Positions 1,574 through 24,515 of a stretch of 25,935 nt of DNA are shown here, in pieces. The notes below the pieces were generated by a model that searched no databases, had not been told where the DNA came from, and saw only the letters and a list, made by a program, of their open reading frames with translations. Position numbers and translations under genes: made by a program. Numbering within the stretch: the stretch's first letter is position 1; the number at the start of each line of letters is the position of its first letter. Origin of the DNA: Patescibacteria group bacterium (GTDB lineage Bacteria; Patescibacteriota; Microgenomatia; CAYGWK01); NCBI GenBank assembly GCA_049322615.1, contig JBMORX010000004.1, positions 1 through 25,935 on the forward strand. Reading direction: 5' to 3'.

Positions 1574-1618
1574 GAAATAAACAAATTTCAAATAAACAAA
1601 TAAACAAATTGCAAATGA
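1574..1618 (+). repeat. six tandem 7-8-nt (C/G)AAAT-initiated units running into the surface-gene start codon
   Basis: GAAATAAA | CAAATTT | CAAATAAA | CAAATAAA | CAAATTG | CAAATGA. The ATG at 1615 lies inside the last unit. Confidence 0.7.
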
Positions 1619-4362
1619 TAAATAAAAAATTATTTGGAAAAATTTTAAGCCTGATTTTGGTTTTCCAGTTATTGGTTAACCCTGCTTTAGTCAGGGTGGT
1701 TTTTGCTGAAGAAATAGTTGAGCCAACTCCTACGCCTGAATCTACAATCACCACCGGCGACCCTTCGGCAAGCTCAGGGCAAGCTGCTCAATCATCAATT
1801 GAGACTGGCAATGCCTCTTCTGAAGCCTCGGTCCAGACTACCGCTAATACCAATCAAGACACCCTTCCTGGAGAAATTACCACCCCTCCTGGAGATTGCA
1901 CGCCCCCAGAGGGAGAAACTTCTTGTCCAACTGATGTCACCATTTCTAATGATAATTCTGCCCAAGTTTCCGATTCCACTGGCTCAACGGCAACAACCGG
2001 AGAAAATCAAATCACTGGTTCTTCTGGAGACACGACCATCTCAACCGGCGACGCCACCGCTTCGGGAACGATTGAAAATGAGATTAACTCAAACACGGTT
2101 ATCCTTGAACCCAGCCCAACCCCCTCCATTGAACCCGAAGCTCTGACCGCGTCTGACGCGGTCACGGTTACAGTTGAGAATAATAATGAGGGAACAGTTC
2201 AAAATGAGGCTAATATTAACGCCTCAACCGGAGAAAATTTAGCCAGTGAAAATCTTGGTGACGCTCAAATTGAAACCGGTGATGCCCTGGCTTTGGCAAA
2301 TCTTTTAACTCTTTTAAACACCAACATTTTAGGTTCTAATTTTGAAGTTCTTTTACTTAATCTTTTGGATGGAGAAACTGGAGATGGTTCGACAAGCTCA
2401 CCACAAGATATCGACTTGAATGAACTTTGGAAGAAACTTCAGGAACTTCAGGGTTCGAATTCTTTGGTTTTGGCTGGCGAGATATCAGGTTTACAGATTT
2501 TAGTCCAAAACCAAAATCAGGCGGATTTAGAAAATAATGTTAATGTTTCGGCTGGGACCGGAGAAAATCAGGCGAATGAAAATAACAACGCCGGGATCGA
2601 GACTGGTGATGCTACCGCTTTGGCAAATGTTACTAACGTAGTCAATACCAATATTTTAGGTTCAAATTTCTTTTTTGGCGTCATTAATATTTTGGATGCA
2701 GATGGGAATTTGATTTTACCCCGACCGGAAAGATTTGGTTCGACAAGCTCACCACAGGGTGCTTCTGGGCAGACCTCAGCGGTGTTTGAAAATGACAACC
2801 AGGCAGAAATTACCGATCAAGTTGGGGCTTTGGCAGAAACTGGAGCAAATGAGGAAAACGGAAATGGGGGTGACAACTTAATAGTCACTGGCAATGCCAT
2901 TGCCCACGCCAACAGTTTTTCTTTGGTTAACTTAAATATTTTCCGCAATAATTGGTTTTTCTTAATTATAAATAATTTAGGCAATTGGCAAGGGAAAATT
3001 TTTGGCTGGTCAGCCCCCGAGGCAGTGGAGGAACCAAGTGTTGGTAGTCAAGTCTATCAATTAGGACTTAACCCGGAGAGTCAAACTGGGGAAAATGGAG
3101 TTGAATCAGAGAATTTTTCTACTCCTTTAAGTTTTCAAAATCAAAATCAAGCCAGGGTGAGAAATAATATTCAAACCTCTGCCTCAACTGGAGAAAACCA
3201 GGCAAGCCAAAATCAAGGTAATGCCTCAATTCAAACTGGCAATGCCCGGTCTTTGGCAAATCTTTTTAATTTGGTTAATTTAAATATTTTAGGCGGAAGG
3301 TTCTTTATGGGGATAGTTAATATTTTAGGCGATTGGTCAGGCTCAACCATTTTTGCTTATCCGGATGTGGCGGTAGGACTTTCGGCCGAGACTAGTCAGG
3401 TGACTCCTGGAGAAACTCTTCAGTACATTTTAAGTTATAAAAATCTGGGATACGATGAAGCCCAAGGTGTCAGGCTTGGTTTGGAGTTACCCGAAGGCTT
3501 AAGTTATCTGAGCGATACGAGTGGGTTGAGCGCGGTGGTTTCTGGGCAAAACCTTTCTTGGAGCTTGGGGCAGCTGGGAGCGGGTAAAGAGGGGAGTTTT
3601 ACCATTATGGTTAAAGTTAACTCTGATTTTAGCTTTGAGGAGCCAGTCTCTTGGCTTTCAAAATTTATCCCCAAAGCCTATGCGGCCGAAAATGAAAAAG
3701 AAAAAAGTGTGGTCGTTAATGTTCAGATTAGCACTTCGGATCCTGAGTCAAACAGCAGTAATAATTCCTCCTCAACGACAACCATGGTTTATCTTCCTCA
3801 TCAAGAAGGGGGTGTGGACCCCCGCCAGCCGGTTTTGGAGATTTCTGCTTGGAATAATGTCAATGAGTTTGTTTATCCTGGAGATACGGTCACTTTTGAA
3901 ATTACCGTTAAAAACACAAGTGATGTTTCCTCCTATAATACTCGGTTAATCCAAAGACTCTATAATGGTGTGCCCGAGGATTTTGGTACGGCTGAATTTG
4001 ATTTAGGAACAATTGAGCCAGGGAAGGGCGGAAAACTTTCTTTTGGCTTAAAATTAGCTGATGATGGTTTACTTCCTGCCGGTCCTTATTACACCATTGC
4101 CCAAGCTTTTGGCAATGCTCCAAATGGAAACGAGGTTTCTTCAAATGAATCAAGAACTAATTTTGAGATAAAAGTTAAAAATATTTCCTCTTTGCTACCT
4201 GAAGCCAAGGCGGTTGAGGCAAAAGAAGGAGTCTTAGGTAGCGGGACGGCTGCCAGTTGTCCAAAAACTGAAGATATCCTCCCTTACGTTTTGCTTTTGC
4301 TTTTATCATCAGGTTATATTATTTCCTGGGCAAAACCAAGACTGAAGAAGGGAGTGAAATAA
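1615..4362 (+). CDS. large secreted cell-surface protein: signal peptide, five ~55-aa degenerate repeats, two DUF11/CARDB-like Ig-fold segments, C-terminal TM helix plus basic tail
   Basis: Signal peptide MINKKLFGKILSLILVFQLLVNPALVRVVFA. Repeats of the type VQNQNQADLENNVNVSAGTGENQANENNNAGIETGDATALANVTNVVNTNILGSNFFF. TPGETLQYILSYKNLG...GSFTIMVKV and YPGDTVTFEITVKNTS...GKLSFGLKL resemble DUF11. C-terminus is ...LPYVLLLLLSSGYIISWAKPRLKKGVK. ATG 1615 is preferred over the track's TTG 1609. Confidence 0.9.
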   Translation: MINKKLFGKILSLILVFQLLVNPALVRVVFAEEIVEPTPTPESTITTGDPSASSGQAAQSSIETGNASSEASVQTTANTNQDTLPGEITTPPGDCTPPEGETSCPTDVTISNDNSAQVSDSTGSTATTGENQITGSSGDTTISTGDATASGTIENEINSNTVILEPSPTPSIEPEALTASDAVTVTVENNNEGTVQNEANINASTGENLASENLGDAQIETGDALALANLLTLLNTNILGSNFEVLLLNLLDGETGDGSTSSPQDIDLNELWKKLQELQGSNSLVLAGEISGLQILVQNQNQADLENNVNVSAGTGENQANENNNAGIETGDATALANVTNVVNTNILGSNFFFGVINILDADGNLILPRPERFGSTSSPQGASGQTSAVFENDNQAEITDQVGALAETGANEENGNGGDNLIVTGNAIAHANSFSLVNLNIFRNNWFFLIINNLGNWQGKIFGWSAPEAVEEPSVGSQVYQLGLNPESQTGENGVESENFSTPLSFQNQNQARVRNNIQTSASTGENQASQNQGNASIQTGNARSLANLFNLVNLNILGGRFFMGIVNILGDWSGSTIFAYPDVAVGLSAETSQVTPGETLQYILSYKNLGYDEAQGVRLGLELPEGLSYLSDTSGLSAVVSGQNLSWSLGQLGAGKEGSFTIMVKVNSDFSFEEPVSWLSKFIPKAYAAENEKEKSVVVNVQISTSDPESNSSNNSSSTTTMVYLPHQEGGVDPRQPVLEISAWNNVNEFVYPGDTVTFEITVKNTSDVSSYNTRLIQRLYNGVPEDFGTAEFDLGTIEPGKGGKLSFGLKLADDGLLPAGPYYTIAQAFGNAPNGNEVSSNESRTNFEIKVKNISSLLPEAKAVEAKEGVLGSGTAASCPKTEDILPYVLLLLLSSGYIISWAKPRLKKGVK

Positions 4363-10912: not shown

Positions 10913-11584
10913 TTATTCTTCTAGAGTAAGGTGTTTAATTTTCTGAAGTTCTTTTTGATATTCTGCTTGGTTCAAGACGAACTCCTTGTAACTGTTTTTG
11001 GTTTTGAAGAAAGAAAGAATATCTTTGGGATCAACGAACTCATGCCTATTTTGATTTATATAATCTGAGAAGGACGACCACTGATAGTTTTCTAGGCCAT
11101 CGTTTTCTATCAAATAAGCAGAGACGGGATTAAGGTGAATATATCTTGAGACATGAAGAAATTGTTCGTCAGTTTCTATTCTGACTGCTTTAAACATTGA
11201 TTGAAAAAGTCCACCAGCGCGTTTATATTTGGTGTTGAAATAGCGGGCATAACTATTTTGAAAATTTCTCATAAAAGTAGAAATTCCATTTTCCACATTT
11301 TGCTTTAAAAGAAAATGGCAATGATTAGGCATAAGACAAAAGGTACTGATTTCTGTAAGGATTTTATGTTTTCTCAAATTTTTAAGAAAGTTTTCTTTAT
11401 CTTCTTTAGGAAGGCGTTTATAATGAGAGAAACTAAGCGGAGGTTTAATATAGCGGTAGAAATCAATAATCTCTAGTGCTCTTTGATAATCTCGAGTCTC
11501 TTTAAATACTGGAATCTGGGCTATGCTCCGATTAACCACATGATAAATTTCGTTAGTTGCGAAAATAGTTTTTCTGTATGGCAT
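10913..11584 (-). CDS. IS200-like / REP-associated tyrosine (Y1, HUH) transposase
   Basis: HUH motif in CLMPNHCHFLL. Catalytic Tyr context HVSRYIHLNPV. 223 aa. Confidence 0.85.
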   Translation of the reverse strand: MPYRKTIFATNEIYHVVNRSIAQIPVFKETRDYQRALEIIDFYRYIKPPLSFSHYKRLPKEDKENFLKNLRKHKILTEISTFCLMPNHCHFLLKQNVENGISTFMRNFQNSYARYFNTKYKRAGGLFQSMFKAVRIETDEQFLHVSRYIHLNPVSAYLIENDGLENYQWSSFSDYINQNRHEFVDPKDILSFFKTKNSYKEFVLNQAEYQKELQKIKHLTLEE

Positions 11585-15385: not shown

Positions 15386-15430
15386 CCGTACCGCGCTGCT
15401 TCACCTTCACCGAAACCATAACCGATTCAC
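15367..15430 (+). repeat. right direct repeat flanking the four-helix-bundle gene
   Basis: acgtaaccaaactACTTAACCGTACCGCGCtgcttcaccttcaccgaaaccataaccgattcac. It spans from the cassette stop (15383-15385) to the stop of the minus-strand GT-C gene (15427-15429). Confidence 0.75.
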
Positions 15431-16629
15431 AAATATGGTGTCCAGTCGGCGACTGGGGCAGTGTTGTGAAGAATAAAGTTAATGGCGTAAAGATAGATTG
15501 GGATTAGAATAAAGAAGAAAGCGATTTTGAATTCTTTTTTCTCTAAGAAAGGCGAGAAGGCGAGAAGGTAAAAGGGTGCCAGCGGTAGACTATAGCGAGA
15601 TAAATCACGGTGGGCGACAAACAAGGTAGCGGTAAAAAATACCAGGGCAAAAGTAGCTAAATCATAAAGTTTTTGTTTAAATAATAAAACCACGGTTAAA
15701 GCCCCAAAAAGATAAATAAAAATCATATCTTCAAGCCAAAAGTCTCCTAGCCAATTTCTGCCGGTAACAAATGACTGGAGAGGTGGAAAAACTAGGTGGA
15801 AATTATCGCCCGAGTGAAAATAAGCCAGAAAATCACCGGTTTGAATTTTATAGAACCAAAAAACAGGGAGGATAGAAAGAGGAATTAGGAATAAGGGTAG
15901 GAGGTTAAACCAGGTTATCTTGTGACACAAACAGACGCTATAGCGTGATTTTGTGTCAGTGGGGCGATGGTTTAAATAATGGTAGCCTAGGTAAATAAGA
16001 TAAGCGACAAAAAGTAAAATTCCCGGAGTTTTAGTTATCTGGGCAATGGCGCCAAAAAGCCCAGCCAGGAAAAAGTCAAGAGTAACGCTTTTATATTTTA
16101 AAAAAAGATTGCTTTCTTTTTTTTCAAAAGCGCTTTTGAAAAAATAAAATGAGGCTAAAATAGCAAAAATAAAAAGAGGTTCGGGTGAGCCAATTGAGCG
16201 GACAACCAGCCAGCGAGCAGGAAGAAAAAGAAATAAGAGAGAAAGAAAGAAGGACGAGGCAGGAGTGGAGAGATTAAATTTCTTGACAAATAAATAAAAC
16301 ATCGAGACCGCCAAAATAGTCGTAAACAGAGTTACTGAAAGCATCGCCCAGGTGCCAGGAAGAAAAAGGTTAAAAAACTTGATAAGTAAGGGATAACCTG
16401 GAAGATGGGCTGGATAATATTCAAGGGGAAGTGGCAAAGAAAAAGAAGTTCCGATTAAAGTCTTATTGTACAAAGTTTTAGCCACAATAATATAATTTGG
16501 ACCATCATAATTGGCAAAAACGGAAAGCATCCCCTTGCCTAGTCCTAAAGAAAAAGGAAACCAGACCAGAAGAGTGGAAAAGATAGTAGTAAGACCTAGG
16601 AGTAAAAGATCTTTTGCGGTTTTCCTCAT
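15427..16629 (-). CDS. polytopic membrane protein, putative GT-C glycosyltransferase (PIG-V/PMT-like)
   Basis: At least 10 hydrophobic helices, with ANYDGPNYIIVAKTLY in the first external loop. ATG 16629 (MRKTAKDLLLLG...) is preferred over the track's 16794 because a -10-like TACAAT lies 6 nt upstream. Confidence 0.7.
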   Translation of the reverse strand: MRKTAKDLLLLGLTTIFSTLLVWFPFSLGLGKGMLSVFANYDGPNYIIVAKTLYNKTLIGTSFSLPLPLEYYPAHLPGYPLLIKFFNLFLPGTWAMLSVTLFTTILAVSMFYLFVKKFNLSTPASSFFLSLLFLFLPARWLVVRSIGSPEPLFIFAILASFYFFKSAFEKKESNLFLKYKSVTLDFFLAGLFGAIAQITKTPGILLFVAYLIYLGYHYLNHRPTDTKSRYSVCLCHKITWFNLLPLFLIPLSILPVFWFYKIQTGDFLAYFHSGDNFHLVFPPLQSFVTGRNWLGDFWLEDMIFIYLFGALTVVLLFKQKLYDLATFALVFFTATLFVAHRDLSRYSLPLAPFYLLAFSPFLEKKEFKIAFFFILIPIYLYAINFILHNTAPVADWTPYL

Positions 16630-16800
16630 GACCTTATTGTATACCACTCTGTTTTGATTTTGCAAAAAGTGGTATATACCTACCGTAGCTTTCAAATGAG
16701 AGTTTGGTTTGACTTTCCAATCAAAACTACTTTCCAAAATCAAAACTCCGTTAGGTATAACCCCTTGCAATTTGAAAGCAGAGGGGTATAGCACAAAATA

Positions 16801-16820: not shown

Positions 16821-17519
16821 ATGGAAAAATTACCCGAGTTGTCTGTTTTTTTTCCTGCCTATAACGAGGAAAAAAATATCAAGGAAACAGTTTCCAAAGC
16901 CACTAAAATTTTACCAAAAATAGCCTCAAAATACGAAATTATTATCGTTGATGATGGCTCAACTGATAAAACCGGAGAAATTGCCGATAAAATTGCCAAA
17001 GATAATAAATCTGTTAGGGTGGTTCATCATCATCCGAACCGAGGCTATGGGGCGGCTTTAAAATCTGGTTTTTCAAAAAGTCGATACTCCTGGGTAGCCT
17101 TTACCGACGCCGATGGTCAATTTGATTTTTCAGAAATTGAGAACTTTTTGCCTCTTACTAGAAAAGCCGATCTTATCTTGGGATACCGAATAAAAAGGGC
17201 TGATTCGATTGTGAGGAGGATTTACACTTTTGGTTGGTTTGCAATCGCCCGGCTTCTTTTAGGATTGGATGTTAAAGATTATTCTTGCGGCTTTAAATTG
17301 ATAAAAAAAGAAGTTTTTGAGGCGGTTCAACCACTTGAAGGCGAGGAGAAGGTAACCCAAATTGAGCTTTTGGTAAAAGCAGAACGTCTTGGATTTAAGT
17401 TTGCCGAAGTTGGTGTTTCCCATTATCCCAGAAAATTTGGTCAGCAAACGGGAGCTAATTTGAAAGTCGTGGCTAAAAGCATTATTGATCTGGTTAAACT
17501 TTGGCAGAAGTTAAGATGA
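16821..17519 (+). CDS. GT2 family glycosyltransferase (polyprenyl-phosphate hexosyl synthase-like, GtrB/ArnC type)
   Basis: SVFFPAYNEEKNI, IIVDDGSTDKT and FTDADGQF; 232 aa. Confidence 0.9.
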   Translation: MEKLPELSVFFPAYNEEKNIKETVSKATKILPKIASKYEIIIVDDGSTDKTGEIADKIAKDNKSVRVVHHHPNRGYGAALKSGFSKSRYSWVAFTDADGQFDFSEIENFLPLTRKADLILGYRIKRADSIVRRIYTFGWFAIARLLLGLDVKDYSCGFKLIKKEVFEAVQPLEGEEKVTQIELLVKAERLGFKFAEVGVSHYPRKFGQQTGANLKVVAKSIIDLVKLWQKLR

Positions 17520-19039
17520 TGAAAGAAATTTTCCGTAAATGGCGGGCGTATCTGCCTATTTTTATAATTCTTCTGATTGCTTCAATTTTGCGATTATACC
17601 GAATCTCTGACTATATGACTTTTTTGGGAGATGAAGGAAGGGATGCGCTTGTGTGGTTGCGAATGGTTAGGGATGGGAAATTCACTTTAATAGGACCAAT
17701 GACATCGATTGGTAATATGTATTTAGGGCCACTGTATTATTATTTAATGCTTCCATTTTTCGTTTTATTTTTCTTGAGCCCCGTTGGTCCGGCAGTCGGG
17801 GTAGCCCTCTTTTCCTTAGCGACAATTTTCCTGCTCTGGTGGATAGGGAGAAAGTGGTTTGATGAAAAAGTGGGATTAATTGCCGCCCTTCTCTACGCAA
17901 TTTCGCCGGTGGTAATTATTTACTCCCGTTCTTCTTGGAATCCTAATGTCATGCCATTTTTCTCACTTTTGACAATTTGGGGAGTTTGGCAGTTTTGGCA
18001 AAAGGGAAATTTCTTTTGGCTTCCTGGAGTGGGAATTACTTTATCATTTGCTCTTCAGTCTCACTATTTGGGTCTTTTACTTATTCCTGTTGTTTTGGCC
18101 TTTCAGACAGTTACCCTCTTGAATCTCTTTAAAAAAAAGCAAGAACTTAAAAAATTTATTTTGCTATTTGCTATTTGCTATTTGCTATTTGCTATTTTAA
18201 CCATTCTCCCATTGGTTTGGTTTGATCTTCGCCACAATTTTTTGAATTACCAATCTTTCCATAAATTTTTTACAGAAAGGCAAACAACCGTTAACTTGAA
18301 AATATACAAAGCCATTCCCAATCTTTGGCCGTTGTGGGAAATGATGGTAACGAGGTTACTGGTGGCCAAGGAAATTGTCTGGGGCAAGATAACGGCGCTA
18401 GGTTTAATCCTGGGAGCAGTTCTTTTCCTTTGGAGGTCCGACCTCCTAAGAGGTCGGACCTCTTCAGGCAGAAGAGCTCTGGTTTTAATTTTAACCTGGT
18501 TGGTGGTGGGCTTTTTGGGAATGGGACTTTACAAACAACATATTTATGATCACTATTTTGGTTTTCTTTTCCCAGCCTTGTTTCTTTTGGCTGGCGTAGT
18601 TTTAGGAGAACTCTTAAGTCAGAAAAAAATTAGGAAAGTCGCCTTTGTCATTTGTTTATTGTTATTGGTTATCCTCAATTTTAAAAACTCTCCCTTGAGA
18701 GATCCGCCCAATTTTCAACTGAAGAGAGTTCGGGAAGTTGATCAAAAGATAATGGTTGAATCGGAAAATTTGCCCTTTAATTTGGGTTTAATTGCTAAAC
18801 AAAACTATGACGCAGGCTATAGCTTTTTCCTGGAGCTCTGGCGAAGAAAGCCGGTGGCAATTGAACCACTCAAGGCTAAGGAGACGATTACCGGGCAACT
18901 CTTTGTTATTTGCGAAGACCCAGTTTGTGAACCAATAAACCATCCAAAAGCGGAAATTGCCAATTTTGGTTGGAGTAGAATCGATAAGGAGTGGGAAATA
19001 GCTGGAGTTAAATTATTCAAATTAGTCCATACCCAATGA
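17516..19039 (+). CDS. GT-C membrane glycosyltransferase (ArnT/PMT_2-like)
   Basis: ATGA overlap with the upstream GT2 gene. TM1 is followed by FLGDEGRDALVWLRMVRDGKF (acidic loop). Many TM helices plus a C-terminal soluble domain. Confidence 0.85.
   Translation: MMKEIFRKWRAYLPIFIILLIASILRLYRISDYMTFLGDEGRDALVWLRMVRDGKFTLIGPMTSIGNMYLGPLYYYLMLPFFVLFFLSPVGPAVGVALFSLATIFLLWWIGRKWFDEKVGLIAALLYAISPVVIIYSRSSWNPNVMPFFSLLTIWGVWQFWQKGNFFWLPGVGITLSFALQSHYLGLLLIPVVLAFQTVTLLNLFKKKQELKKFILLFAICYLLFAILTILPLVWFDLRHNFLNYQSFHKFFTERQTTVNLKIYKAIPNLWPLWEMMVTRLLVAKEIVWGKITALGLILGAVLFLWRSDLLRGRTSSGRRALVLILTWLVVGFLGMGLYKQHIYDHYFGFLFPALFLLAGVVLGELLSQKKIRKVAFVICLLLLVILNFKNSPLRDPPNFQLKRVREVDQKIMVESENLPFNLGLIAKQNYDAGYSFFLELWRRKPVAIEPLKAKETITGQLFVICEDPVCEPINHPKAEIANFGWSRIDKEWEIAGVKLFKLVHTQ
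18161..18197 (+). repeat. perfect heptanucleotide tandem repeat (TTGCTAT) x5 inside the coding sequence
   Basis: ttgctat ttgctat ttgctat ttgctat ttgctat tt encodes LLFAICYLLFAIL. Confidence 0.95.
18433..18462. repeat. perfect 13-bp GC-rich inverted repeat with a 4-nt loop inside the coding sequence
   Basis: GAGGTCCGACCTC-ctaa-GAGGTCGGACCTC encodes WRSDLLRGRTSS. Confidence 0.95.
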
Positions 19040-20514
19040 GATCGTTTAAAAATTGGTTGCAGAATCACCTAACTTATTGTTTGTTGGCAGTTATTTTGGT
19101 GGCTGCCCTTTTTTTACGAATTTATAAACTCGACCAACTTTTGGGTTTTTACTATGACCAAGGACGCGATGCCTTGGTTGTCTGGCGACTAATCCACGAA
19201 GGAAAGTTTTTCCTTGTGGGTCCGGTGACGGGGATTGAGGGAGTTTTTTTGGGACCGTTTTATTATTATTTGATTGCCCCTTTTTATTTTCTTGGTGGAG
19301 GATCTCCAGTTTTTGTCGCCGCAGTTTTGAATCTTTTCTCTGTTTTCGGTATTTACCTACTTTATCTAGTAGCTAAAGAATTCTTTGATAGAAAAGTGGC
19401 TGTTTTAGGGTCGTTTTTTGTTGCCTTTTCTTATAGTCTTGTTGTTTTTTCTCGCTGGTTGTCTCATCCTCCACTTTTGCCTACCTTTAGTCTACTAATC
19501 ATTTATGCTTTTTTGCAGATTTATCGAGGGCAAGAAAAATGGTGGTTAGGGGTTGGGCTTATTGAGGGCTTATGTTTACAACTTGAGGCGGCTGCTGCCG
19601 TTTTTTTCCTTCCTACGATTTTGATTTTTTATTTTTGGCAAAGAAAAAGAACAAATTTTCTAATAATTGCCGCTTCCTTGTTGCTCTTTTTGTTAACTTT
19701 GGCTCCCCAAATTATTTTTAACTGGCGCCACCAAGGAATTCTTCAAGAGACTTTTCGAAAATTTTTGGTGAGTGAAAAAAGTTTTTCTCTACCACTTTTT
19801 GAGTTAGCAAGACAGCGACTGGTTACTTATTTTGATGTTTCCTTTTCTAGGTTTTTTTATGCCCAAAAAAACTTAAGTATTGTCTGGTTTTTGACTTTAT
19901 TGGTTTTAGGATTTTTGAAAAGAAGAGAAATTTTTACTGGAGAAAGGAGAATACTTGCGTTTTGGCTTTTAGTGCCATTGGCTGGCTATCTTTTCTACCA
20001 AGGAAACTATGGATATTTCTGGGATTATTATCTTTCTGGGGTCTGGTTAGTGTTTATTATTTTGGTTGCCTTTTTGCTTGTGAGTTTTTGGCCAAAAATT
20101 TGGGGAAAGTTAATATTTTTCCTGTTTTTGGCATCTTTTCTTTACGTCAATTTCGCCCAGTTTTTAATTTATTATCGAATAGGAATTGGGATTATTCTTC
20201 GTGATCAACTCGCGGCTATCGATTGGATTTATCAGGATGCCAAAAGTACGGATTTTAATGTTGATATTTATGTGCCGCCAGTGATCCCTTATGCTTATGA
20301 CTATTTATTCAAGTGGTATGGAACCGGGAAGCACGGTCAAGAACCGCTAGAGAAAAGGACGTCGCTTTTGTATACTTTATACGAGATTGACTCATCCCAT
20401 CCAGAAAGACTGGAGTCCTGGCTTACTAGGCAAAAAGGAATTGGGAAAACAATTTATGAGAAGTCATTTGGTGGAGTAACGGTCCAAAGGCGTGAAAGGA
20501 TGGAGTCAAAGTGA
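19036..20514 (+). CDS. GT-C membrane glycosyltransferase, tandem paralog of 17516-19039
   Basis: ATGA overlap. YYDQGRDALVVWRLIHEGKFFLVGPVTGIEGVFLGPFYYYL parallels FLGDEGRDALVWLRMVRDGKFTLIGPMTSIGNMYLGPLYYYL in the upstream gene. Confidence 0.85.
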   Translation: MRSFKNWLQNHLTYCLLAVILVAALFLRIYKLDQLLGFYYDQGRDALVVWRLIHEGKFFLVGPVTGIEGVFLGPFYYYLIAPFYFLGGGSPVFVAAVLNLFSVFGIYLLYLVAKEFFDRKVAVLGSFFVAFSYSLVVFSRWLSHPPLLPTFSLLIIYAFLQIYRGQEKWWLGVGLIEGLCLQLEAAAAVFFLPTILIFYFWQRKRTNFLIIAASLLLFLLTLAPQIIFNWRHQGILQETFRKFLVSEKSFSLPLFELARQRLVTYFDVSFSRFFYAQKNLSIVWFLTLLVLGFLKRREIFTGERRILAFWLLVPLAGYLFYQGNYGYFWDYYLSGVWLVFIILVAFLLVSFWPKIWGKLIFFLFLASFLYVNFAQFLIYYRIGIGIILRDQLAAIDWIYQDAKSTDFNVDIYVPPVIPYAYDYLFKWYGTGKHGQEPLEKRTSLLYTLYEIDSSHPERLESWLTRQKGIGKTIYEKSFGGVTVQRRERMESK

Positions 20515-21269
20515 ATCCCTATCTTTCAGTCATTATACCTTGTTATAACGAAGAGGATAACCTTAAAAGGGGTGTTCTTCTTGAGGTGGAAAACTTTTTG
20601 ACTAGGCAGCCTTACGAAAGTGAAGTCATTGTTTCAGACGATGGTTCCCTAGATGGAAGTTTAGAGTTGGTAGAGGCTTTTGTCAAAAAACATCCAAGGT
20701 TTAGACTTCTTAAAAATCCTCATAAGGGAAAACCATTCGCCGTTTTCGCCGGAGTGATAGTGGCTCAAGGAGAGATTACCCTTTTTACCGATATGGACCA
20801 GTCAGCTCCAATTTCTGAAATTGATAAACTTTTGCCCCATTTTCAGCAGGGATTCCAGGTAGTCATTGGCTCCCGAGGAAAAGAGCGGAAGAGATTTTCT
20901 TATTACAGAAAAATTATCTCTTGGGGATTTCGTTTTGCCAGAAGATTAGTTTTTCTTCGGGGAATTATCGATACCCAATGTGGATTTAAAGCTTTTAAAA
21001 CTGATGCAGGGAAAAAAATTTTTGAAAAAATGCAAATTTTCAAAGAGAAGGGAAAAGCAGCAGGCTGGAAAGTTGGAGCTTGGGATGTTGAGTTTTTATT
21101 TGTGGCGGAAAAACTAGGATATAGGACAAAAGAAGTTCCCGTCTCCTGGGAAGATAAAGACATAGCCGCAGGAAAGAAAAGAAATTTTCTTAAAGAGTCA
21201 AAAGAAATGCTTTTTGAAATTCTAAGAGTAAAACTGAATGATTTGAAAGGGAAATACGATACAAATTAA
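20511..21269 (+). CDS. GT2 family glycosyltransferase (polyprenyl-phosphate glycosyl synthase-like)
   Basis: GTGA overlap plus SD GGATGGAG. SVIIPCYNEEDNL, IVSDDGSLDGS and FTDMDQS. Confidence 0.9.
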   Translation: MNPYLSVIIPCYNEEDNLKRGVLLEVENFLTRQPYESEVIVSDDGSLDGSLELVEAFVKKHPRFRLLKNPHKGKPFAVFAGVIVAQGEITLFTDMDQSAPISEIDKLLPHFQQGFQVVIGSRGKERKRFSYYRKIISWGFRFARRLVFLRGIIDTQCGFKAFKTDAGKKIFEKMQIFKEKGKAAGWKVGAWDVEFLFVAEKLGYRTKEVPVSWEDKDIAAGKKRNFLKESKEMLFEILRVKLNDLKGKYDTN

Positions 21270-21278
21270 AAATTAAAA

Positions 21279-22799
21279 ATGAAAAATTTAAAATTACAAT
21301 TTAAAATTAAAAATTTTATATCGGAATGGAAATTGACAATAGTCTTTGGGTTGATGATTATTACTTTGTTTTTTGCTCTACGCCTTATTAATTTGACGAT
21401 TCTTCCTATTTTTGCCGATGAGGCGATTTATATTCGTTGGTCTCAAGTAATGCGGGTCGAACCGACTTTACGATTTCTTCCTCTTTCTGACGGAAAACAA
21501 CCTCTTTTTATGTGGTTAACCATTCCCTTTTTAAAATTTTTCCCTGATCCGTTGGTTGCCGGAAGAATGGTCTCTATTTTGGCTGGGTTTGCTACCATGG
21601 TGGGAATATTTTTACTAACACTTCAATTATTCAAATTACGGATAGCTCTGTTGGCGAGTTTACTTTATGCGGTTTCCCCTTTTACTGTTTTCTTTGACCG
21701 AATGGCTTTGGTTGACTCACTACTTTCTATGTTTGGAATTTGGGTTTTGTATTTTGGAATTTTGCTCACGAGATACCAGCGACTTGATTTAGCGATGATA
21801 ACAGGGATGATATTGGGGGCAGCTCTCTTAACAAAATCTCCGGCGACATTTTTTGCTATTCTTTTACCGGCAACAGTGATACTTTTGTCATTTAAATTAA
21901 AAAAAGATTTAATTGTTCAATTAATTAAAGTGGTAGGTTTATGGTCGGTGGTTTACTTTTTTGCTTATGGTTTGTATAACATCCAGCGCCTGGGTCCAAA
22001 TTTTCAAATGATTGCTCTTCGGAATAAAGACTATGTCTTTTCCCTAAGTCATCTTCTTACTAATCCTTTAGACCCATTTCAGTTTCATCTTGCCGAAATT
22101 TGGCAGTGGTTTGGCACACTTTTAACCTGGCCCATATTCTTAGTTAGTTTAGCGGGTATTTTTCTGGCTTTAAGAAAAAATCTAAAACCAGCCCTTTTGC
22201 TTTTGCTGTGGTTGACAGTTCCCCTGCTTGTCCAAGCCGAATTTGCCAAAGTTTTCACTGCCCGCTATATTTTGTTTTCCGTGCCAATCCTTTTAGTTTT
22301 TTCTGCCTTGGGATTATCGTTAGGAAGGCTTCTTTTTTGGTTAATTATTTTAATTTTCCCTTTATATTTTGATTTTTTGCTTCTAACTGATCCTTCAAGG
22401 GCGCCTCTCCCCAGGCGGGAAAGAGCCGGTTATCTTGAGGAGTGGACAGCCGGAACTGGGATTAAGGAGGCAGCCTACTATCTTAAAGAACAGGCAAAGA
22501 CAAGAAAAATATTAGTGGGGACAGAGGGTTACTTCGGCACTCTTCCAGATGGTTTACAAATGTATCTTGAGCGCATCCCAAATATAACAGTTGTCGGCAT
22601 TGGTCTTTATCCAGAAAAAGTTCCAGATTCACTTATCTCTGGTTTGACTGATAATGAGGTTTATCTTTTAATTAACAATGAAAGACTTGCCCTTAAACCG
22701 GAAGAGCATAATCTTACCTTGGTGGCTAATTATCCTAAGGCAAAAAGACCGAACGGAACTCATCAGTCCTTACTTCTTTTTCTGGTAAAATCGCGTTAG
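21279..22799 (+). CDS. GT-C membrane glycosyltransferase (ArnT/PMT_2-like)
   Basis: TM1 then PIFADEAIYIRWSQ (DE loop motif). Polytopic, with a C-terminal soluble domain. Confidence 0.85.
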   Translation: MKNLKLQFKIKNFISEWKLTIVFGLMIITLFFALRLINLTILPIFADEAIYIRWSQVMRVEPTLRFLPLSDGKQPLFMWLTIPFLKFFPDPLVAGRMVSILAGFATMVGIFLLTLQLFKLRIALLASLLYAVSPFTVFFDRMALVDSLLSMFGIWVLYFGILLTRYQRLDLAMITGMILGAALLTKSPATFFAILLPATVILLSFKLKKDLIVQLIKVVGLWSVVYFFAYGLYNIQRLGPNFQMIALRNKDYVFSLSHLLTNPLDPFQFHLAEIWQWFGTLLTWPIFLVSLAGIFLALRKNLKPALLLLLWLTVPLLVQAEFAKVFTARYILFSVPILLVFSALGLSLGRLLFWLIILIFPLYFDFLLLTDPSRAPLPRRERAGYLEEWTAGTGIKEAAYYLKEQAKTRKILVGTEGYFGTLPDGLQMYLERIPNITVVGIGLYPEKVPDSLISGLTDNEVYLLINNERLALKPEEHNLTLVANYPKAKRPNGTHQSLLLFLVKSR

Positions 22800-22817: not shown

Positions 22818-24515
22818 ATGTTCAAGAAGACCCTCCTCTGGATGATTTTAGTTTTATTTTTGTCGGTTTTTTCTTTCAAGTCTCTTCTTGGCCCGGGTTA
22901 TTTTCCGATGCATGATGATCTTCAGATAGGCCGGCTTTATCAAATGGATTTATGTATAAAGGATGGTCAAATTCCTTGCCGTTGGGTCCCGGATATGGGT
23001 TTTGGCTATGGTTATCCTTTATTTAACTACTACCCGCCATTTCCGTATTATGCTGCAGAAATATTTCATTTAGTTGGTTTTAGTCTGATTGACTCGATTA
23101 AGATTCTTTTTATCTTGGGACTTGTCTTCTCTGGAATTTTTGCCTATCTTTTGGGAAGTCAGTTATGGGGAAAATATGGTGGTTTAGTAGTGGCTGTTTT
23201 TTATATTTATGCTCCATATCATGCGGTTGATGTTTATGTCCGAGGGGCACTAAATGAGTTTTGGGGATTGGTTTTCTTTCCGGCAATTTTTTGGGTGGTT
23301 TACAAAATTATCAAGGAAGAAAAGAAAATTTATGTAGCAACTTTAGCGCTATTTTTTGCCTTGCTACTTTTGTCTCATAATTTAATGGCTTTCTTCTTTG
23401 CTCCTGCGGTGGCAGCGTGGGGTATATTTTTACTTTGGTATCTTAAAAAACCCTGGAAAATCTTAATCCAACCTGCTCTAGGGGGAATTTGGGGAGTGGG
23501 TTTGGCGGCTTTTTTTACCTTACCGGTTATCTTTGAACAAAAATTTGTCCACGTTGAGACAATGTTTATTGGTTATTTTAATTATCTGGCGCATTTTGCG
23601 ACCATTAATCAGCTCTTTTTTAGTCGCTTTTGGGGTTATGGTCCATCAGTCTGGGGGACGGAGGATGGCATGCCTTTTCCTATTGGTCATTTACATTGGA
23701 TTATCGCTACTATTTCTTTAATTATTTTTACCTTTTTGTGGTTTAAGAAAAAAATAACTATCCATTACTATTTACTGTTCACTATTTACTATTTACTATT
23801 TTTAGGAACTGCCTTTTTAGCTCACCAGCGTTCCACATTTGTCTGGCAGGCTGTTCCGTTTTTGGCTTCAATGCAATTCCCATGGAGATTTGTGGGAATC
23901 TCCTCATTTTTTGCCACAATTTTAGCAGGGAGCATTTTTGTCTTAATTAAGACTGAGAACAAAGCCACAATTTTAGCCGTTTTAATGGTTCTGGCAGTTG
24001 TTGGGCTTAATTATTCCTTTTTTCAACCAGAAAAAATTTTAAATATTACTGACGAGGAGAAACTTTTTTCCGCTAAAGGTTGGTACAAACTCCAAACCGA
24101 TGCTATTTTTGATTACCTACCAATTTATGCCGAAAAACCTCCGGGTGAGAAGGCACCAGATCAGCCTTGGTTTGAAGAAGGCAAAGGAGAAATCAAAAAC
24201 TTTAAAAAAGGGACTAATTGGCAAAAATTTGAAGCTAACGTGGACTCCGATAAAGCCACGATAAGATTGCCTCTTTATGATTTTCCAGGAATGAGAGTGT
24301 GGGTGGACGGAAATGAGGTAAAGATTAATCATGATAATTTTCTGGGCTTAATCACCTTTCAAGTACCACCTGGCACTCATCAATTTTCAGCCCGTCTGAC
24401 CAACACCCCTGTCCGCACCGTTTCTAATTTAATTTCCCTGATTTCTTGGTTAGAGATAGTAGGATTTATGATAAAATGCAAGTATGGCAGAATTGACAAG
24501 CGGACCGGAAATTGA
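22818..24515 (+). CDS. large polytopic membrane protein, GT-C-like (resembles the COG5617 / PTPS-related / YfhO-type membrane glycosyltransferase class)
   Basis: N-terminal TM then GYFPMHDDLQIGRLYQMDLCIKDGQIPCRWVPDMGFGYGYPLFNYYPPFPYY. More than 10 TM helices and a C-terminal beta-rich domain. Family assignment is from memory. Confidence 0.65.
   Translation: MFKKTLLWMILVLFLSVFSFKSLLGPGYFPMHDDLQIGRLYQMDLCIKDGQIPCRWVPDMGFGYGYPLFNYYPPFPYYAAEIFHLVGFSLIDSIKILFILGLVFSGIFAYLLGSQLWGKYGGLVVAVFYIYAPYHAVDVYVRGALNEFWGLVFFPAIFWVVYKIIKEEKKIYVATLALFFALLLLSHNLMAFFFAPAVAAWGIFLLWYLKKPWKILIQPALGGIWGVGLAAFFTLPVIFEQKFVHVETMFIGYFNYLAHFATINQLFFSRFWGYGPSVWGTEDGMPFPIGHLHWIIATISLIIFTFLWFKKKITIHYYLLFTIYYLLFLGTAFLAHQRSTFVWQAVPFLASMQFPWRFVGISSFFATILAGSIFVLIKTENKATILAVLMVLAVVGLNYSFFQPEKILNITDEEKLFSAKGWYKLQTDAIFDYLPIYAEKPPGEKAPDQPWFEEGKGEIKNFKKGTNWQKFEANVDSDKATIRLPLYDFPGMRVWVDGNEVKINHDNFLGLITFQVPPGTHQFSARLTNTPVRTVSNLISLISWLEIVGFMIKCKYGRIDKRTGN
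23766..23801 (+). repeat. heptanucleotide tandem repeat, 5 units (3 perfect ACTATTT plus 2 degenerate), inside the coding sequence
   Basis: TACTATT TACTGTT CACTATT TACTATT TACTATT encodes YYLLFTIYYLLF. Confidence 0.85.
24469..24477 (+). promoter_or_regulatory. extended -10 (TGaTAAAAT), 6 nt upstream of the flippase ATG, embedded in the 3' end of the preceding gene
   Basis: TG 24469-24470, TAAAAT 24472-24477, GCAAGT, ATG 24484. Confidence 0.4.

Follow-up and report, generated by a model that had tools for sequence, protein, structure and literature searches.

An uncultivated bacterium carries a run of 7-nucleotide (nt) units in one of its membrane glycosyltransferase genes. Does this run form a slipped-strand ON/OFF switch, as an initial annotation had proposed? 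We analysed a 25,935-nt stretch of Patescibacteria DNA (contig JBMORX010000004.1 of assembly GCA_049322615.1, positions 1 to 25,935), hereafter called the window, in which five perfect heptanucleotide units lie within an open reading frame (ORF) at 17516–19039 that encodes a predicted GT-C glycosyltransferase. Recurrent slippage of heptanucleotide units, at a site that is a hot spot throughout this gene family, very probably produced the tract. That it also serves as a slipped-strand frameshift switch for a surface-glycosylation enzyme is a candidate reading, drawn from sequence comparisons, to which we give an even chance.

A perfect heptanucleotide tract in a GT-C gene

Direct reading of the window gives (TTTGCTA)x5 followed by TTT at positions 18160–18197, a tract of 38 nt for which Tandem Repeats Finder reports a period of 7, 5.4 copies, 100% matches and 0 indels. 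The initial annotation had described five perfect units of TTGCTAT at 18161–18197, which is the same tract in a different register, and its unit count agrees with both Tandem Repeats Finder and a lag scan. Translated in the frame of the ORF, the tract encodes the peptide LLFAICYLLFAIL, at a point 42% of the way through the gene. No other perfect tandem repeat with units of 1–9 nt in the entire window is as long, the second longest measuring 21 nt.

Chance is a poor explanation for such regularity. The tract contains 31 consecutive lag-7 matches, for which the chance estimate is roughly 0.26^31 per position, or roughly 0.4^31 even when a T-rich helix-coding sequence is assumed. Codon shuffles (n = 300) of the homologous 135-nt regions from 85 loci never produced a lag-7 run of at least 13 matches. 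The repeat is non-triplet, uninterrupted and contained within an ORF, the pattern by which repeat-mediated phase-variable genes are recognized, and its five units exceed the working threshold of at least three heptamer units that marks candidate phase-variable loci in Haemophilus influenzae (PMC2651432). A regulatory protein-binding site or iteron was also considered and was rejected on the basis of the 7-nt spacing, the location within a coding helix and the lineage-specific units.

Assignment of the product to the GT-C class (ArnT/PMT-like, GT39/GT83-type) is based on domain matches, a predicted structure and an identical database entry. The NCBI protein P0001, titled 'MAG: ArnT family glycosyltransferase [Patescibacteria group bacterium]' (MAG, metagenome-assembled genome), is 100% identical, is encoded on one contig of 69,855 nt and is annotated from a TTG start at 17501, giving 512 amino acids (aa). 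Two Pfam gathering thresholds are passed, by PF13231 PMT_2 (40.5 bits; cut-off 26.1) and by PF02366 PMT (31.5 bits; cut-off 22.7). An AlphaFold (AF2) model built on 30 orthologs has a predicted local distance difference test (pLDDT) score of 85 and a predicted template modelling (pTM) score of 0.87, and a Foldseek comparison places ArnT first (5f15, TM-score 0.63/0.60), followed by AglB, OST/STT3, PglB, ALG12 and Pmt4, with E values down to 1e-8. A profile search of PDB sequences with the same protein gave no match, and placement among known structures is thus by fold comparison only. The motif FLGDEGRD (residues 36–43) is invariant in the 30 orthologs and may correspond to the conserved acidic motif in the first extracytoplasmic loop of GT-C enzymes, with a putative catalytic role.

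Residues 216–228, encoded by the tract, fall inside a predicted helix spanning residues 208–240 (hydrophobic segment 209–239). The earlier statement that the repeat lies in frame within a part of the gene coding for a transmembrane helix was therefore correct.

Conservation of the tract site among orthologs

Ortholog DNA was read just upstream of the codons for the PLVWFDLRH motif, which anchors the homologous site. One ortholog, L082 (assembly GCA_022868865.1), carries an identical (TTTGCTA)x5.4 tract between diverged flanks. The two genes are 56% identical as proteins, 61% identical as DNA and 41% identical at third codon positions, yet a 44-nt perfect match spans the tract, the second longest measuring 17 nt. 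Other orthologs carry related or altered units at this position: L083 combines three perfect units with one TTTACTA; in L084 there are five degenerate units, CTGCTGT, CTGCTGT, CTGCTAT, TTGCTAT and TGGCTAT; and L001 has a perfect 14-nt period over the same 38 nt, with TTTGTTA and TTTATTG alternating.

A neighbour-joining tree of 120 orthologs, computed after masking of the helix, places each of the five genes that bear a tract in a different clade, and the nearest orthologs of the window gene by overall identity (P0002–P0005, 66–70%) lack the periodic peptide. The length of the helix is constant: an alignment of 30 orthologs has 0 indels in the tract helix, and no length difference appears among those 30 or among the 85 loci.

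Because all units, or every second unit, are altered alike, the regular unit-wise differences require unit duplication and loss with zero net length change, rather than independent point mutations. As far as these comparisons go, the site is conserved, with changing units, across genes that are approximately 45–57% identical.

A family-wide hot spot for period-7 repeats

The wider survey comprised 85 orthologous loci, 80 further ones having been fetched from species-representative genomes, all of them Microgenomates-type MAGs. The homologous site was located by tblastn, and the hot region was taken as the 135 nt that precede the codon for Pro in the PL motif, which adds up to 11.5 kb over all loci. 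Perfect tandem repeats were counted for periods 4–12 at a minimum of 13 lag matches. Within the hot region, 9 of the 85 loci have a perfect tract of period 7 that measures 20 nt or more; one period-5 and one period-6 tract were also counted there. Elsewhere, period-7 tracts number one in the remaining 114 kb of the genes and two in 491 kb of flanks (3 in 605 kb). The codon-shuffle expectation for hot-region lag-7 runs of at least 13 matches is 0.0 loci, compared with the 9 observed, and for runs of at least 10 it is 0.04, compared with 11 observed.

The repeated sequence itself differs by lineage. The hot-spot units include TTTGCTA, TCTGCTG, CTATACG/ACGCTAT, GGAAATT, AATACGC and ATCACCT, and they encode unrelated loop or helix peptides such as LLFAICY, IRYTLYA, KLEIGNF, NTQYAIR and SPITYHL. 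Averaged over the family, lag-7 nucleotide identity is 0.37–0.41 at the hot spot versus 0.25–0.30 elsewhere, and identity at lag 14 peaks there too. The frame-neutral periods 6, 9 and 12 show no enrichment. Dominance of period 7 over these three periods is the opposite of the pattern for insertions that are simply tolerated.

Period-7 arrays were also counted with Tandem Repeats Finder (score of at least 40) over 647 kb. GT-C-homologous DNA makes up 47% of this sequence and holds 24 of the 26 period-7 arrays; one of the two exceptions is truly in a GT-C N terminus and the other is the weak rtcB tract. Arrays of other periods show no GT-C bias. Orthologs of the adjacent paralog, gene 2, have the same architecture and are present in most of the flanks, and they provide a negative control. 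A random distribution of heptamer tracts had been named at the outset as grounds for abandoning the switch, and the concentration of arrays in GT-C DNA shows that their distribution is non-random.

Out-of-frame alleles

Truncated orthologs were sought with the N-terminal 231 residues, and six on longer contigs were inspected. In L086, which resides on a 622-kb ENA contig, the gene breaks at precisely the hot-spot position into two ORFs, of 228 and 287 aa. The tract there, located between the loop codons AAAAAG and ATGTCGCC, reads TTTTTTCTC TTTTCTC TTTTCTC TCTTTCTC TATTTTA and measures 38 nt versus 45 nt in the counted in-frame orthologs (L011 and L019); the protein alignments contain no gap in this helix. 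Insertion of one TTTTCTC in silico joins the halves into one ORF of 518 aa, with 44% identity to the window protein, and the restored helix, FFLFSLFSFLSFSIL, is similar to that of L019. On this sequence comparison, L086 is a natural minus-one-unit allele. At L086 positions 3680–3692 the N-terminal ORF ends in a stop codon that shares bases with the start codon of the C-terminal ORF (TAATG), so that the halves might be made as separate polypeptides.

The other five candidates give no evidence of heptamer slippage. L087 has an indel in an A run, and the 'contig_' name of its contig hints, as a guess, at a long-read assembly; in L090 a T5 run is reduced to T4; L091, an ambiguous case, lacks 1 nt among T6 runs; and L088 has an 8-nt deletion just past MSPL. 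L089 (3160–3192) is an ENA metagenome contig ending in an Illumina adapter (AGATCGGAAGAGC...), which yields a false truncated GT-C protein. Among full-length orthologous loci, 84 of 84 read through in one frame, a count that carries little weight for OFF frequency given that the set was picked by best match. A protein search with residues 120–231 returned short fragments only and no informative alleles, and its index seems biased to subjects of similar length.

Frame consequences and the proposed switch

In silico editing of the unit number bears out the prediction that gain or loss of one or two units shifts the frame and truncates the enzyme. With five units the full 507-aa product is read, and with 3, 4, 6 and 7 units the products are 231, 225, 238 and 232 aa, ending at one of two stop codons just beyond the tract (Table 1); either neighbouring state, four or six units, thus gives a truncated protein. 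Edits to two or eight units retain the reading frame. Even so, the five-unit state would be the only ON state, because the encoded helix tolerates no length change.

If the switch model is correct, the tract would act as a slippage-prone simple-sequence repeat that sets the reading frame of a surface-glycosylation enzyme. With five units the full-length GT-C transferase would be made (ON). Strand slippage during replication would add or remove one 7-nt unit, so that translation would end at the TAA at 18198 with four units or at the TGA at 18223 with six (OFF), and the product would lack the C-terminal half of the protein. The premature stop may also lower expression of the downstream GT-C gene 2, since the start codon of that gene overlaps the stop codon of the tract-bearing gene. 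A second slip would bring back five units. Repeated cycles of loss and gain would keep the tract perfect and homogenize its units, and we propose such cycles as the reason that the tract is perfect, its units concerted and its length fixed. From the patterns described above we infer slippage as the cause, a switching rate relevant to populations, an adaptive value and polarity on gene 2.

The ON/OFF proposal of the initial annotation is upheld in part. Its structural premises stand, and its functional claim gains considerable indirect backing from the identical tract in L082, the concerted variants at the same position in other orthologs, the hot spot, the minus-one-unit ortholog and the non-random distribution of heptamer arrays; as an account of a working switch it is partly supported. 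Several observations weigh against it. L086 may be a dead pseudogene and not a gene in a reversible OFF state, and reversibility is not demonstrable from this allele alone. It is also the only one of the six inspected truncated orthologs with a clean heptamer-unit change; because the five others lack one, ordinary decay or assembly error is evidently another way in which this GT-C family is broken. Sampling is biased as well, with full-length searches favouring ON alleles and fragment searches favouring OFF alleles. No conspecific sequences were found among approximately 5.8 billion cluster representatives, where the next protein is 70% identical, and a JGI metagenome scan for at least two TTTGCTA units near PLVWFD codons recovered only the distant ortholog contig L083. 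Exact look-ups of the window protein, read from either start codon, retrieved no contig. Both perfect TTTGCTA alleles (window and L082) have exactly five units, a number that is short relative to well-studied contingency loci, and the switching rate may be low. Finally, the tract is mid-gene and not near the 5′ end, the position common for phase-variable repeats (PMC3315296).

Alternative explanations

The alternative that survives best, possible if somewhat doubtful in our judgement, holds that the tract is a mutational by-product. Slippage would be real on evolutionary time scales and too rare for a population-level switch; the repeat would be tolerated since the helix needs hydrophobicity only and the gene is dispensable, and frameshifted copies would be loss-of-function alleles or pseudogenes. 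The low and identical unit number of the two perfect alleles and the mid-gene location fit this account, as do the close relatives P0002–P0005 with no periodic peptide, the homopolymer indels that cause other frameshifts in this T-rich region, and the rather divergent C-terminal half of L086 (37% identical to its best relatives). Three findings argue against it. Neutral tolerance predicts periods 3, 6 and 9, and period 7 dominates; a neutral 38-nt tract is not expected to be nucleotide-perfect between genes with the low third-position identity of the window and L082; and approximately 340 kb of non-GT-C flanks are devoid of comparable arrays, which speaks against a general 7-nt mutational bias.

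It is improbable that selection acts on the protein instead. On that view the helix and loop would need a seven-residue periodicity, for instance in helix packing, and codon bias would make the DNA periodic as a side effect. A loose seven-residue pattern does occur at the helix in many orthologs, such as NFALCALNFALL or F..C...F, and the raised family-average lag-7 identity at the site could be read in the same way. However, the window and L082 use the same synonymous codons at all of approximately 14 codons, for which we estimate a probability near 1e-6 given identical peptides. Moreover, the peptides are wholly different between lineages, the tracts reach into loops and N-terminal tails, and the unit is perfect in three frames, which points to a process at the DNA level.

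A split-enzyme switch is a still fainter prospect. Here the C-terminal half would be re-initiated, giving two polypeptides that assemble, or the N-terminal fragment would have an altered function. The TAATG overlap in L086 and the C-terminal ORF that stays intact for 287 codons there are what such an arrangement would look like. Yet TAATG is not conserved in relatives, in which the Leu codon before the Met varies, and the next in-frame ATG after the tract in the window gene comes only at residue 276. No split GT-C enzyme turned up, an impression gained with no dedicated search. That an assembly or sequencing artefact made or mis-sized the repeat is scarcely credible, for although short tandem repeats are prone to mis-assembly and one truncated relative ended in adapter sequence, the ORF is intact with a gapless match to orthologs at the helix, the independent assembly of L082 has the same tract in different flanks, and 38 nt is shorter than a typical short read.

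The locus and its neighbouring genes

The switch proposal concerns a surface-structure gene, a role ascribed to the product by annotation and gene neighbourhood. The window holds a surface-glycan locus that includes genes for a DUF11 surface protein, an fn3 protein and a sortase, with a sortase substrate among the products, as well as genes for a nucleotidyl transferase, UDP-glucose dehydrogenase, a GT2–GtrA fusion, two small GT2 proteins and four GT-C proteins. The tract-bearing gene is flanked on the same strand by a GT2 gene and by its paralog gene 2 (Table 1), and stop/start overlaps at 17516–17519 (ATGATGA) and 19036–19039 (ATGA) link the three. The first overlap makes translational coupling from the GT2 gene to the tract-bearing GT-C gene likely, and the arrangement suggests coupling along the operon as a whole, with gene 2 a possible target of polarity upon truncation of the gene before it. 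Two neighbours, the GT2 gene that overlaps it on the upstream side and the GT2–GtrA fusion close by, hint that the GT-C enzyme may use a polyprenyl-phosphate-linked sugar donor.

Table 1. Positions of the heptanucleotide tract, its host gene and associated features in the window
Feature	Position	Strand	Details
Upstream GT2 gene	16821..17519	+	Pfam Glycos_transf_2; TGA stop overlaps ATG start of the GT-C gene (ATGATGA)
GT-C (ArnT/PMT-like, GT39-type) glycosyltransferase gene with tract	17516..19039	+	Assigned by Pfam, AlphaFold model and P0001
Perfect heptanucleotide tract (TTTGCTA)x5 + TTT	18160..18197	+	Encodes LLFAICYLLFAI(L), residues 216–228
TAA stop	18198..18200	+	Read at 4 or 7 units; products of 225 or 232 aa
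PLVWFDLRH motif codons	18212..18238	+	Mostly invariant columns in the 30-ortholog alignment; anchor for the homologous site in orthologs
TGA stop	18223..18225	+	Read at 3, 6 or 9 units; products of 231, 238 or 245 aa
Paralogous GT-C gene 2	19036..20514	+	ATG overlaps stop of the tract-bearing gene (ATGA)
A/T-rich period-7 array, AAATTAA-like, 7.7 copies	21263..21316	+	82% matches
Imperfect heptamer tract TTACTAT x5.3	23765..23801	+	Perfect over 21 nt, 3 mismatches overall; within GT-C gene 4 (22818–24515)

Several further features of the locus were observed. The DUF11 surface-protein ORF (1609–4362, 917 aa), which is followed by the fn3 protein and the sortase, has at its start an array of period 8/23 at 1575–1631 (AAATAAAC; AAATAAACAAATTGCAAATAAC x2.6). 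An ORF for an IS200-like Y1 transposase (10913–11584, minus strand), flanked by trmD and the nucleotidyl-transferase gene, lies immediately upstream of the cluster of glycosylation genes. The minus-strand ORF 15427–16794 (455 aa), between the GT2–GtrA gene and the GT2/GT-C pair, has no Pfam match; unannotated minus-strand ORFs of 366–387 aa occupy the same position in L001, L084 and L086, and in L083 a 383-aa PMT-family ORF is found there.

Other period-7 arrays in the window and in relatives

The window contains a second heptamer tract, at 23765–23801 in GT-C gene 4, that encodes HYYLLFTIYYLLF in the first helix after the FKKK loop of a distant GT-C paralog. The likeness of its unit to that of the main tract, pointed out in the initial annotation, is real, as TTACTAT and TTGCTAT are one base apart and both lie in GT-C genes. 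The HYYLLFTIYYLLF peptide is present at the homologous helix in 0 of 150 representatives of the gene 4 family, and conservation of this tract is unsupported at the protein level. A resemblance had also been proposed to the array at the start of the DUF11 ORF; this is not meaningful, as that array has a period of 8/23. A third array, at 21263–21316, runs across the stop codon of a GT2 gene and the intervening spacer and takes in the initial 13 codons of GT-C gene 3 (MKNLKLQFKIKNF).

Heptamer arrays were likewise seen at other places in the relatives. Arrays in N-terminal tails occur in orthologs of gene 1 (the tract-bearing gene) and gene 3 (L064 2935–2967, L003 5232–5262, L013 2940–2968 and L078 2890–2916), and one in L032 (2926–2950) lies immediately upstream of the ATG. 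Later in a gene 1 ortholog, L018 has a perfect (AAATTAC)x4.4 array (4082–4112) in the loop QEITNYKLQITNF, and L086 has a perfect (TTTTTGC)x3.7 array (4141–4166) in the helix VFAFCFLLF ahead of an NFK.SPL motif. In L011 the loop before the hot-spot helix (3502–3663) consists almost entirely of tandem repeats, in the order (AATACGC)x3, a 24-nt unit present twice (RSQALLT/RSQALLI) and a CTTTTCG-type array in the helix.

These positions bear on a broader reading, one that we entertain tentatively. Across the Microgenomates of the Candidate Phyla Radiation (CPR), heptanucleotide repeats at fixed positions in GT-C genes may constitute a lineage-wide contingency system for surface glycans, in which the helix tract would have a single ON copy number and would be kept perfect by cycles of loss and gain. 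The fixed positions, put forward with the same reserve, would be the mid-gene boundary between loop and helix, the N-terminal tails and later helices.

Comparison with known systems

Phase variation through simple repeats is textbook knowledge for host-adapted pathogens. CPR cells probably live in attachment to other microbes, and many surface-glycosylation genes occur in their genomes. If the switch model is correct, a heritable and reversible switch on such enzymes would imply fluctuating selection on the surface by phage, host-cell recognition or grazing. Should the lineage-wide reading hold, this would be the first contingency-locus family for ultra-small, uncultivated and probably episymbiotic bacteria, and an unusual design as well, with a switch set within a transmembrane helix and conserved across genes of such low identity. 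The frameshift-prone repeat, with lineage-specific units at a conserved transmembrane-helix position, is also instructive as an example of concerted evolution where length is strictly constrained. In the open-access literature we found no paper joining phase variation or simple repeats with Patescibacteria or CPR, and the one match has both terms in passing.

The best structural match of the predicted model is ArnT, a 4-amino-4-deoxy-L-arabinose transferase that shares the GT-C fold and the Pfam domains PMT_2/PMT, although sequence identity is just 12–13%. We know of no such repeats in ArnT. The locus also resembles the gtrABC O-antigen glucosylation modules found in Salmonella and in phages that infect it (flippase GtrA, GT2 enzyme GtrB and membrane transferase GtrC), where a polyprenyl-phosphate-sugar GT2 and a GtrA-like domain are combined with a membrane transferase that modifies a surface glycan; the likeness is one of module logic and not a claim of homology between the GT-C genes of the window and GtrC. 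Expression of gtr in Salmonella is phase variable (PMC2909390). That switching is epigenetic, dependent on DNA methylation and located at the promoter, whereas the process proposed here is slippage inside the transferase gene.

The contingency loci of H. influenzae include tetranucleotide repeats in lipooligosaccharide (LOS) transferase genes and heptanucleotide repeats at hmw1A/hmw2A. They share with the present tract the presence of perfect non-triplet repeats in surface-structure genes. The H. influenzae tracts are usually much longer, variable among strains and near 5′ ends or promoters, in contrast to five mid-gene units of conserved copy number. For example, hmw promoters carry 13–38 heptamer copies, and (AATTTTG)14 has been described within an ORF, together with a frameshift (PMC2651432).

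The protein-glycosylation gene pglE of Neisseria, whose phase variation is controlled by a heptanucleotide repeat (PMC7157529), likewise codes for a glycosyltransferase that decorates surface structures and has 7-nt units within its reading frame, so that a change in unit number shifts the frame. The two cases differ in that pglE encodes a soluble-type transferase of a host-adapted pathogen with demonstrated switching, whereas switching here is predicted from sequence, the enzyme is a polytopic GT-C protein, the helix encoded by the tract spans the membrane and is fixed in length, which leaves one ON copy number, and the host is an uncultivated Patescibacteria (CPR) bacterium that its closest homologs place among Microgenomates. 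The proposed mechanism would be that of the classical contingency loci, and what sets this case apart is a GT-C enzyme, a mid-gene transmembrane-helix tract, a single permissive copy number, a site conserved while its units change, and a CPR host.

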